DNA of 64,000 nucleotides, taken from positions 104,284,001-104,348,000 of the forward strand of contig NC_043002.1 in assembly GCF_006345805.1 (NCBI RefSeq). The letters are read 5' to 3'. How positions within the stretch are numbered: position 1 is the first letter of the stretch; every line of letters begins with the position of its first letter. The DNA comes from Octopus sinensis. Taxonomy: Eukaryota. Of this stretch, positions 1,356 through 54,730 are shown piece by piece. A model generated the notes under the pieces. It saw only the letters and a program-made list of their open reading frames with translations, was not told the origin of the DNA and searched no databases. The position numbers and the translations under genes are program-made.

Positions 1356-1590
1356 AATATTACGATGTACTTATATAGCAAGTGACCTAATCTGAGATCG
1401 TCTGCTGGAACGAAAACAATTGCAGCGTGGAAGATGTTTATAAGCCATTTAAGAACATACAGAATTTTGTCAGTGAACAGGTCGCGGTCTCAAAGAGACG
1501 AAACTATTTTGATAAATTTTATTAAATGATGAAGTGAATCTAACGGTTTTGTGTGTTTCTTAAACACCTTCCACGCTGCAATTTTTTATA
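1355..1590. mobile_element. Foldback pLTR-like element (same family as 28311-28592)
   Basis: 1356-1462 is the reverse complement of about 28485-28590; inverted aattgcagcgtggaag / cttccacgctgcaatt; flanked by (TA)n. Confidence 0.75.
1465..1516 (+). ncRNA. Hammerhead-like motif with G3:C8 core (GTGAACA)
   Basis: ttttgtca-GTGAACA-ggtcgc..gagac-GAA-ACTATT-T-tgataaa. Confidence 0.55.
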
Positions 1591-7906: not shown

Positions 7907-9173
7907 TTAGGTCATCCCATAAGTTCTGTCCGATTTTACCTCTTTGAAAATTGAATGAAATTTAATAGTATTTTAGAATGTCTAATGGAATTAAAAATTA
8001 ATTTAATGCATTTGTGTACATTTAAACTAATTAAATATTATTTTACAGAATAATAGAATTAAAATTTCTTTGATTAAAACCCTTTCTAACATGGAAGTAC
8101 CAAAGAGCTTTTAAGGCACATAATGCTTTATGAGTACAAAAAGGAAACTGCAGCCAAAGTGACTCGAAACATACACTCAGTTTATGGCAAAGAATGCTTA
8201 AATGAAAGAATTTGCAGAAGATTGTTTGCAAAATTCAGAAGTGGAGATTTCAGCCTTGAATATGAAGATTGAACAGGACGTGCAGCTGAGTTTGATGATA
8301 AGCTCCTCGAGGCATTACTTGGAGAAAATCCTGCATTATCAGTTGAAGAATTGGCCATAAAGCTTAGACCAAACCATACAACTGTTCATCGTCATCTTCA
8401 ACAACTTGGAAAGTTTCCTATACTTGGAAAATATCCGAAAGCATCCGCAAATCCCGAGTTGACATCTGCTCTTCACTCCATTCTCGGGAACACATTTCAC
8501 CCTTTTTGGATAAACTTGTAACTGGTGACGATAAATGGATCTTCTAACAAAATGTAAAATGTCGTAAACAGTGGCTTGGTAAAAAGGAAATAGCTCAATC
8601 ACAACCGAGAATGGAACTTCATGGGAAAAGATTCGTCTCTCTATCTGGTGGAATTGCAAAGGAGTAATTCAGTTTGAATTGTTACCACCTAATGCAACAA
8701 TCAATGTTCAAGTTTACTGTCAAAAATTAGAGCGTTTGAACCAAGCTGTGAATAAAAAAGATCCGCTTTAGTGGATCGGAAAGGAGTGATGTGTTCATCA
8801 GAACAGTGCACGATGCCACACGGCAACGATCACATCACAGAAGAGCGAAGAGCTTGTTTGGGAAAAAATTCCCCATCCACCTTATTCTCCCGACCTTGCT
8901 CCTTCAGACTATCATTTGTTTCGTAGTTTACAGAATCATTTGGGGGACATAACGTTCGAAAGCCAGAGCGAGGTCGAAAGTAACATTTCAGAGTTCTTCG
9001 CTTTGAAACCCAAAGAGTTTTACATTGATGGGATTAAAACGATGGTAAATAGATGGGAGGAAGTCATAGATAATCAGGGAAAGTACATTGATGATTATAT
9101 TTCAATTAAATATAACATTTGCTCACTTGTTTTCTTTATTCAAAATTCGGACAGAACTTATGGGATGACCTGA
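7907..9173 (+). mobile_element. Full-length decayed mariner transposon
   Basis: TIRs ttaggtcatcccataagttctgtccga / tcggacagaacttatgggatgacctga, TA on both sides, 1267 bp; transposase motifs VTGD.KW and HPPYSPDLAPSDYHLFRSLQNHL. Confidence 0.95.
8091..9110 (+). pseudogene. Mariner transposase pseudogene
   Basis: ATG at 8091 (MEVPKE); several frameshifts and stops; YSPDLAPSD motif near 8883. Confidence 0.9.
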
Positions 9174-27849: not shown

Positions 27850-28078
27850 TATTCTTTTATTTTTTTATTTGTTTCAGTCAATTGACTGCGGCCATGCTGG
27901 AGCATCGTCTTTAGTCGATCGAATCGAGCCCATAACTTATTCTTTGTAAGCCTAGTATTTATTCTATCACTCTTTTTACCGAACCGCTAATTTACTGAGA
28001 TGTAAACTCACCAGCATCAGTCGTCAAGCAATGTTGGGGGGACAAACACACACATACAAACGCCCATACATACACATA

Positions 28079-28150
<72 letters not shown>

Positions 28151-28287
28151 ATGGGCTTCTTTCAGTTTACGTCTACCAAATCCACTCACAAGTCTTTGGT
28201 CAGCCCGAGGCTATAGTAGAAGACACTGAACCCGGAACCATGTGGTTAGTAAAGAAGCTACTTACCACCCAGCCACGTCTGCGCCTA
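27850..28287 (-). mobile_element. SINE family A
   Basis: Reverse complement of the consensus with a small internal deletion. Confidence 0.9.
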
Positions 28288-28310: not shown

Positions 28311-28592
28311 TAAACCGTTAGATTCACTTCAACATTTAAATTTAATTTGCCAAAATATTTTCGTCGCTTTTTAGACTGAAATCTGCTTTTTAGACGGAAT
28401 TTTGTCAGTGAACAGGTCGCGGTCGAAAAGCGTTGGAAATATTTTGGCAAATTAAATGTAAATGTTGAAGTGAATATAACGATTTTTGTGTGTTTCTTAA
28501 ATAGCTTATAAACACTTTCCACGCTGCAATTGTTTTCGTTGCAGCACACGATCTCAGATCAGGTCACTTGCTATGCAAGTGCACCTCCGTAA
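28311..28592. mobile_element. Foldback pLTR-like element carrying the G3:C8 hammerhead-like motif
   Basis: ~60 bp inverted arms 28312-28371 and 28426-28485; tttgtca-GTGAACA-ggtcgc at 28401-28420; the opposite arm keeps gcgac-GAA-AATATT-T-tggcaaa. Confidence 0.75.
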
Positions 28593-53799: not shown

Positions 53800-54730
53800 G
53801 AGCAGCTCAAGAGCAAGCTTTAAGGATTAACTATGTGTCGTGCAGAATTGACAACGCTACCGACAAAAAAAAGAAAGCGTGTATGGAGACAAAATGTACG
53901 GTTTGTTAGCAAGAGATACCTACGTGAAAGGTACAGAAGACCGGTGGCTATGTACGAGGAGGAATGACCTGAATATAGAGACAGAAGTACTTATTGAGCA
54001 GCTCAAGATCAAGCTCTAAAGATTAACTGTGGGAAGTGCAGAATCGACAACACTTGCCGACAACGACAAATGGAAAACGTGCGGTGAGAGGGCTGAAACG
54101 GTATATCGTATCGTTAGCGAATGACTTAAGCGGGTACAACGCGATTGCAATAGACGACAGGACAGTGCGGTAATCGATTGAGAGCTCTGTGGAAGTCACG
54201 GCCTACAAAGAGTAAAGACATGGTATGAGAAAACTCAATGAGTCACCAAGAATGAAAGTTGCAAAATCTTCTGCGATGCAATGAATCAGTCTCATCAGAT
54301 GACTAGACATCGGAAACTGGACATTGTTGTGGTGAATAAAAAAGTAAGAACTTGCATGATAATCGATATAGCATGTGCCAGTGACAACCAGATCAAAGAA
54401 GAAAAAGAAAAACTGTACTACGACGATTTGAATTGGGAAATAGGAAGATTGTGGTCCATGAAGAGAGTAGACGTGCTATCAATAATAATTGGTGCACTTG
54501 GAAGTATCAGCATTCAAATACCAACAGGTCTCACAAAGATTGGTGCAAATATGAAGGTAGAATAACTACAAAAATCAGTATTGCTTGGAACTGCGAATTA
54601 TACACAGGGTTTTTGAAGTATGAGCCTGTTATGCCCCGGTCAGACGTGTAGTCTCGACGGGTATATTGGGTTTCGTATATTCGTACCCCAGTTTCACTTT
54701 GATTGTATGTGCTGCACTAACATTAATCAT
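53800..54730 (+). mobile_element. Dong/R4-type LINE 3' end
   Basis: AAQDQAL, CGERAETV, HRKLDIVVVNKKVRTCMIIDIAC, IIIGALGSI, LQKSVLLGTA. Confidence 0.9.

Follow-up and report, generated by a model that had tools for sequence, protein, structure and literature searches.

A natural G3:C8 hammerhead motif in the 3′ ends of a Penelope-like retroelement of Octopus sinensis

The window analysed here is a stretch of 64,000 nucleotides from Octopus sinensis (NC_043002.1, positions 104,284,001 to 104,348,000, forward strand), in which the heptamer GTGAACA occurs seven times. Two of these occurrences, at 1473-1479 and 28408-28414, lie inside copies of one repeat of about 205 nt and are flanked by TTTGTCA and by the helix II 5′ strand GTCGC. 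A preliminary description had read both as hammerhead ribozymes with GTGAACA in the place of CTGANGA, between stem I and a gtcgc/gcgac stem II; the coordinates and the context of stem I and the stem II 5′ strand stand, but the gtcgc/gcgac helix is found on neither GTGAACA strand. The motif in the window is not a chance occurrence, because both sites are copies of one repeat, for which searching the 2.7-Gb genome with a 41-mer that spans the motif gives 825 exact matches, and its reversed control none. A Penelope-like element (PLE) left both sites, which are decayed copies of its 3′ end (pLTR), and each is an inverted pair, with the following parts:

1364..1464, minus strand: copy 1, inverted 5′-truncated pLTR arm that ends in the long 3′ end (tail) and has no hammerhead core; 87% match to reference pLTR positions 96-198
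1459..1587, plus strand: copy 1, pLTR stub in sense orientation that contains the hammerhead and stops at the short 3′ end, with an 11-nt internal deletion and (TA)n flanks
1466..1472, plus strand: helix I 5′ strand TTTGTCA, pairing with 1510-1516; predicted probability 0.93 for the pair 2.1-1.1
1473..1479, plus strand: core G3 U4 G5 A6 A7 C8 A9 with the swapped 3:8 pair
1480..1499, plus strand: extra G between 9 and 10.1, then helix II (GTCGC/GAGAC; family GCGAC) with a 9-nt loop; damage at 1496
1500..1509, plus strand: G12 A13 A14 A15.1, helix III region (ACTATT; family AATATT), U16.1 and U17
after 1509, plus strand: predicted cut, placed by hammerhead numbering
1510..1516, plus strand: helix I 3′ strand TGATAAA (family TGRCAAA)
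28312..28370, minus strand: copy 2, inverted arm with an intact 3′ hammerhead half and downstream pLTR, without the 5′ core; 93% match to reference positions 41-98
28371..28393, no strand: copy 2, junction filler between the arms, without a match to the reference pLTR
28394..28588, plus strand: copy 2, pLTR stub in sense orientation that reaches the long 3′ end; core at 28408-28414, helix II 3′ strand and A13 damaged (28433-28436)

The complete hammerhead belongs to the family and not to either copy in the window, both of which are decayed and dead. The helix II 3′ strand of copy 1 reads GAGAC at 1495-1499, with a mismatch at 1496, and an A>C change at 1504 breaks its helix III palindrome; in copy 2 the same strand reads GCGTT and A13 has become G. 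The predicted pairing of 10.1 with 11.1, which closes helix II, is 0.00 in both window copies, as against 0.99-1.00 in intact family copies. The intact downstream half that had been placed on the opposite arm of the second site is present there, as GCGAC-GAAA-ATAT-T-T-TGGCAAA on the inverted arm 28312-28370.

The surroundings are otherwise rich in microsatellites. tRNA-type SINE-like repeats, typical of this genome, directly adjoin copy 2 (27905-28280) and recur at many other places in the window. An open frame at 8790-9173 (plus strand), with the motif HPPYSPDLAPSDY, resembles the C-terminal part of a mariner transposase, and another at 54242-54565 (plus strand) resembles the restriction-like endonuclease end of an R4/Dong-type LINE. 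Among the 150 listed of 201 Rfam matches over the whole window, only microsatellite-driven miRNA noise was found.

When positions 3 and 8 were left free in the search pattern, 1,366 genome matches were obtained. Among the 100 listed of these, G3 is present in 97, C8 in 94 and both in 91, with no case of a double change. Copies sampled independently of the core, by a 30-mer lying outside it, agree: 45 of the 47 that could be parsed carry G3:C8, with one G3/G8, one A3/U8 and 2 more unparsed. The proposal of a repetitive natural family in which G3 and C8 are both fixed is thus confirmed, and it holds in all three subfamilies (81, 22 and 57 of 187 copies, with 27 unassigned), which differ in age (median divergence 4.6, 2.9 and 1.5%). 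Older, diverged relatives (L274, L301, L309, L312 and L314) retain G3:C8, U4 G5 A6, A9 and GAAA, with changed loop II, helix III and flanks. The element is also present in contigs of four other organisms, and the three examined have the identical variants and the two 3′ ends. One family copy with C3 and G8, L114 (one of seven matches), has a broken helix I and was set aside as chance decay. A long copy with an ORF, L264, has A3 and U8, the fourth Watson-Crick state; this is a single copy, likely produced by two chance transitions. One head-to-head pair of stubs, with an identical junction and a shared SINE-like flank downstream, is repeated at many places of contig C1 (L031-L033, L044-L048, L052, L056, L057 and L060), and is a palindrome captured and spread by another repeat.

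The consensus of intact copies consists of helix I TTTGTCA/TGRCAAA, the core GTGAACA, the extra G, helix II GTCGC/GCGAC, GAAA, AATATT and U17. Column counts over 187 copies (a sample partly picked by core patterns), together with an alignment across families, show the U4 G5 A6, A9, G12 A13 A14, A15.1-U16.1 and H17 of the hammerhead consensus, while the literal C3 and G8 of CUGANGA are replaced by G3 and C8 in nearly all copies listed. Helices I and II are predicted at probabilities of 0.93-1.00 in intact copies, though not in the two window copies, so that the fold predicted for intact copies is the minimal type I hammerhead of PLEs, here with G3:C8 and U17. Over 26 chosen rows helix II is 96% paired, and one of its pairs has changed on both sides (A-U in 14 and G-C in 9 of the 26). 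The AATATT palindrome of helix III is kept in 106 of 123 parsed main-family copies; the AAUAUU helix of a dimer is marginal, at -0.2 kcal/mol at 37 C. The changes diagnostic of the subfamilies fall on the 9-nt loop II (5) and hardly on the 41 structured positions (1; Fisher p=0.0003), the lone structured change being a pairing-neutral U-A/U.G. Set against the rest of the pLTR, the structured positions do not differ significantly (1 of 41 vs 12 of 148 changes, p=0.30).

The parent element is best seen in L250 of the same genome, which has an open frame of 722 aa (5′ ORF start not recovered). The frame contains DKS and YVDD, a Cys-rich CxxC linker and, at its C-terminus, a YIG motif. We take these to mark reverse transcriptase (RT) and GIY-YIG-like domains. 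The best database match of the frame is an Octopus vulgaris RT-domain protein (56%), and 269 homologs are found at E<=1e-20, a few of them labelled PF00078, PF01541 and PF26215; Pfam and PDB sequence searches with the frame returned no direct match, so the domain assignment draws on the motifs and on the labels of these few homologs. An insertion with 597-nt direct repeats (97.8% alike) and the look of an LTR element interrupts the 3′ region of this parent copy (L250:4359-7104). At nine separate insertions, including L043 of the window's own subfamily, the end of the ORF lies 0.9-1.4 kb upstream of the core, which a minority of copies reach across a microsatellite-rich region (a 30-mer from the upstream side has 415 matches). 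Of 35 inverted pairs, 32 join a long 3′ end to a short one, the two lying about 57 nt apart, and such a tail is a signature of PLEs (PMC8557442, PMC11167929). The element therefore has the marks of a PLE, namely an RT frame with C-terminal GIY-YIG and an inverted 5′-truncated copy with the tail at one end, and it is not a Naiad, because its endonuclease is C-terminal. A direct upstream pLTR was seen on no copy among the loci examined, which were not picked for a pLTR-ORF-pLTR tandem. The copies are dispersed and begin upstream of the core, and so are not the tandem monomers bounded by the cut site that characterize non-LTR retrozymes. PLE ORFs near family copies in L092 and L104 proved coincidental, belonging to other PLE families, one with its own canonical hammerhead, and the G3:C8 copy of L245, with a sister-type ORF upstream across a (TA)n tract, was treated as a nested insertion. 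On the minus strand of L092, about 470 nt past the ORF end, another PLE family has a canonical-core hammerhead whose helix II is unusually long, with about 60 nt separating the two halves of the core.

Sister families found with a loose pattern have the core CTGANGA (N being A, T, G or C), the same extra G and helix II GTCAC/GTGAC; the C3:G8 sister pattern has 1,562 matches, against 6 for its control. Their tails align with that of the G3:C8 element (76.6% over 47 nt), and the ORF of one sister is 49-57% identical to that of L250. A pattern excluding C3 and G8 gave 252 matches (control 24), and hand-counting of the 100 listed yielded 61 G3:C8, 17 U3:A8 and 22 other; the 61 include the older diverged relatives, in which N7 is C or U and the loops differ. 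The U3:A8 copies L305 and L306 also sit behind homologous ORF ends. Tabulated as G3/U3 against C8/A8, the counts are 61, 5, 3 and 17, in rows that are not independent of each other, and 26 rows picked across the groups have G-C in 11, C-G in 9 and U-A in 6, paired by the choice of rows. Three Watson-Crick states of the 3:8 pair, G-C, C-G and U-A, are therefore represented in homologous families. Since these sisters share helix II, the tail and the ORF but have C3:G8 or U3:A8, the swap is a natural covariation of the 3:8 pair. Trees separate the G3:C8 lineage from the C3:G8 lineage, with G3:C8 in one clade of the unrooted pLTR tree, and a tree of the endonuclease region groups the genome's own families (support 98) and leaves U3:A8 unplaced. 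Because of this, and because the outgroup proteins come without DNA context, the order of the 3:8 states is not fixed. To reach G3:C8 from C3:G8 takes two transversions and reverses the pyrimidine-purine order, whereas U3-A8 takes two transitions and keeps it.

Position 17 differs among these groups. It is U in 122 and C in 1 of 142 main-family copies (19 unparsed); C in 25, U in 2 and G in 1 of 45 C3:G8 sisters (17 unparsed); and U in 6 and C in 1 of the 17 copies of the U3:A8 group (10 unparsed). The view that a UUU cleavage triplet is atypical must be given up, as Fig. S3 of PMC4209133, with 56 PLE-type hammerheads, shows U17 in 24 of them and UUU itself in the oyster row. G3 is predicted to mispair with position 17: with C17 it would form a full pair that extends helix I (0.98), with U17 a wobble (0.67 at 37 C), and with A or G nothing. 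Since G3 pairs fully with C17 and with U17 only by wobble, U17 is possibly permissive for G3. Published work remarks as data not shown that a G3-C8 variant was more active with G17 than with C17, and describes traps of this kind as slowing hammerheads (PMC3884650). U17 may therefore permit G3 and still act as a brake, a hypothesis that draws on few independent events.

We scored the 5′ ends of copies in loci sampled by internal patterns, some of which are repeats of one composite insertion. In this sample, an AG/ATG junction 21 nt before the core has 74 of the 142 5′ ends within -6 to +7 of it, and 2 of 142 lie near the predicted cut. Ten of the 11 ends that start at the AG junction carry a non-template G (p about 1e-5 vs 0.25), as is expected from the copying of a 5′ cap (PMC9341517). 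From this we infer that new copies are made from uncut RNA with a likely capped start, and that the pLTR holds a promoter. Transcription would start about 23 nt before the core, and reverse transcription of the capped, uncut RNA would begin at either of two sites separated by about 57 nt, which would give stubs of about 150 and 205 nt, often head to head. In the lizard PLE (Anolis Poseidon), too, the insertion template is reported to be uncut RNA, the hammerhead cuts only with the protein, and hammerhead mutants do not impair insertion in vitro (PMC11167929). The sequence just before the short unit (L204, L191, L198 and L215; 415 genome matches) runs from ACTAAC through a pyrimidine tract to CAG. 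It resembles a strong branch point with its 3′ splice site and lies exactly where the short copies start; PLEs are known to retain introns there. No genomic copy was found in which an upstream exon is joined to the short unit, and the 10 contigs listed from four sets that may be RNA (perhaps DNA) contain no splice joint but do not cover the repeat stretch.

What, then, is the motif doing? The window sites are decayed 3′-end stubs of a PLE whose family has a minimal type I G3:C8/U17 motif, and we consider it probable that in intact copies this motif is still a slow self-cleaving RNA assisted by a dimer partner or a protein. Helix III would then be formed between two RNAs, paired at the AAUAUU palindrome, and the cut would fall after U17. 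The 2′-OH of nucleotide 8 is the proposed general acid (PMC6155905); the 3:8 pair is positional, so its reversal would keep the fold at some cost in rate. The swap C3G/G8C partly rescues a PLE hammerhead in vitro, one that cuts only with its protein (PMC11167929), and minimal PLE hammerheads are described as weak even with the usual core (PMC4209133). The reversed pair sits in one genome beside sisters with C-G and U-A states, so the motif is probably a natural version of a self-cutting RNA that works slowly. Since cutting is not needed for new copies, the core could perhaps have passed through mismatched intermediates. We also put forward, more tentatively and without claiming that it is the likelier outcome, that one retroelement clade has sampled C-G, U-A and G-C with position 17 in step (C17 with C3; U17 with U3 and G3), and that in a putatively active G3:C8 hammerhead the G3.U17 wobble would be a brake: the capped transcript would stay uncut, and so available to reverse transcription, for as long as no second RNA and no protein of the element has switched G3 over to C8.

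The main competitor, which we find possible but the less probable account, is that the motif derives from an active PLE hammerhead and no longer cuts, its fold being kept for RT binding, as a promoter or as an RT start, or being simply too young to have decayed. New copies do span the cut site and start upstream of it, lizard PLE insertion in vitro was unimpaired by hammerhead mutants (PMC11167929), the G3.U17 trap is predicted, and conservation of the structured positions is not significantly above that of the remaining pLTR. However, the five older relatives keep the core while their loop II, helix III and flanks have changed; a dead ribozyme would have no clear reason to restore a 3:8 pair formed only in the active conformation, and mismatched 3/8 states are the minority noted above (22 among 100 listed of 252, control 24). 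The complementarity of G3 and C8 might also be a coincidence, if a founder effect in a single master element fixed two unrelated substitutions. Every G3:C8 copy seen may indeed trace to one event, given their single clade in the unrooted pLTR tree, and for this reason copy number is not independent evidence. Yet the same clade has a third Watson-Crick state in U3:A8, no large mismatched family was seen, and G3:C8 persists in the three subfamilies and in the older relatives, so that we regard such a coincidence as improbable. Least credible of all is a DNA-type palindromic repeat (MITE or fold-back) with an accidental likeness to a hammerhead. Both window sites do resemble imperfect palindromes, but arm lengths vary, the breaks differ, the 3′ ends have two fixed positions, and the upstream continuation into an RT/endonuclease-like ORF refutes this account.

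The preliminary claim that CUGANGA-based searches would miss the family is true by construction, but Rfam hammerhead models match neither an intact G3:C8 copy nor a canonical-core sister. The literature searched yielded engineered uses of G3:C8 only, with incomplete coverage that makes an earlier record possible. G3 occurs in none of the 56 hammerheads in Fig. S3 of PMC4209133, and the G3:C8 motif is absent from the consulted part of the supplement of PMC8557442; the accessible text of the octopus repeat annotation (PMC13282606) does not mention ribozymes, nor does that of a 2026 preprint on retrozymes and PLEs (10.64898/2026.07.22.740005) mention cephalopods. Natural C3-G8 and U3-A8 are on record, and for G3-C8 we found only a laboratory mutant in the literature. 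Searches of genomes for hammerheads should therefore treat 3:8 as a pair and not as fixed letters. In the best-studied small ribozyme it is the 3:8 pair that positions the general acid, and how much catalysis PLEs need is a question because their hammerheads are weak and insertion in vitro can do without them; thousands of G3:C8 copies, with sisters that have the other two pairs on the same scaffold, form a natural series for testing these needs.

Several features place the element among known systems. As in canonical EN+ PLEs of the Neptune/Nematis type (Craig 2021, PMC8557442), there is an RT, a CxxC-type linker and, at the C-terminus, a GIY-YIG-like domain, with inverted 5′-truncated copies, a tail at one end and microsatellite targets; it differs from the PLEs described there in a tail of about 57 nt vs 30-40. 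Like the minimal type I metazoan PLE hammerheads (Cervera and de la Pena 2014, PMC4209133), the motif lies in a pLTR downstream of an RT-endonuclease ORF, has an extra nucleotide between 9 and 10.1, G10.1-C11.1 and a short palindromic helix III, occurs mostly as solo stubs and shares the common U17. It differs in that the extra nucleotide is G, rare in their consensus (H), and in G3:C8 itself, position 3 in Fig. S3 being C in 53 and U in 3 of the 56. Natural U3-A8 hammerheads (Perreault 2011, PMC3088659; Schistosoma Cercyon PLEs, PMC4209133) are a precedent for Watson-Crick covariation at 3:8, which the sisters here share; U3-A8 keeps the pyrimidine-purine order, whereas G3:C8 reverses it. The closest parallel is the Anolis Poseidon PLE (Frangieh 2024, PMC11167929), in which uncut RNA is the insertion template and two RT start sites make the tail, as we propose here, and in whose hammerhead the identical swap, C3G/G8C, was engineered with partial activity. 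What in Poseidon is a laboratory mutant is, in this octopus, a fixed natural state in thousands of copies.
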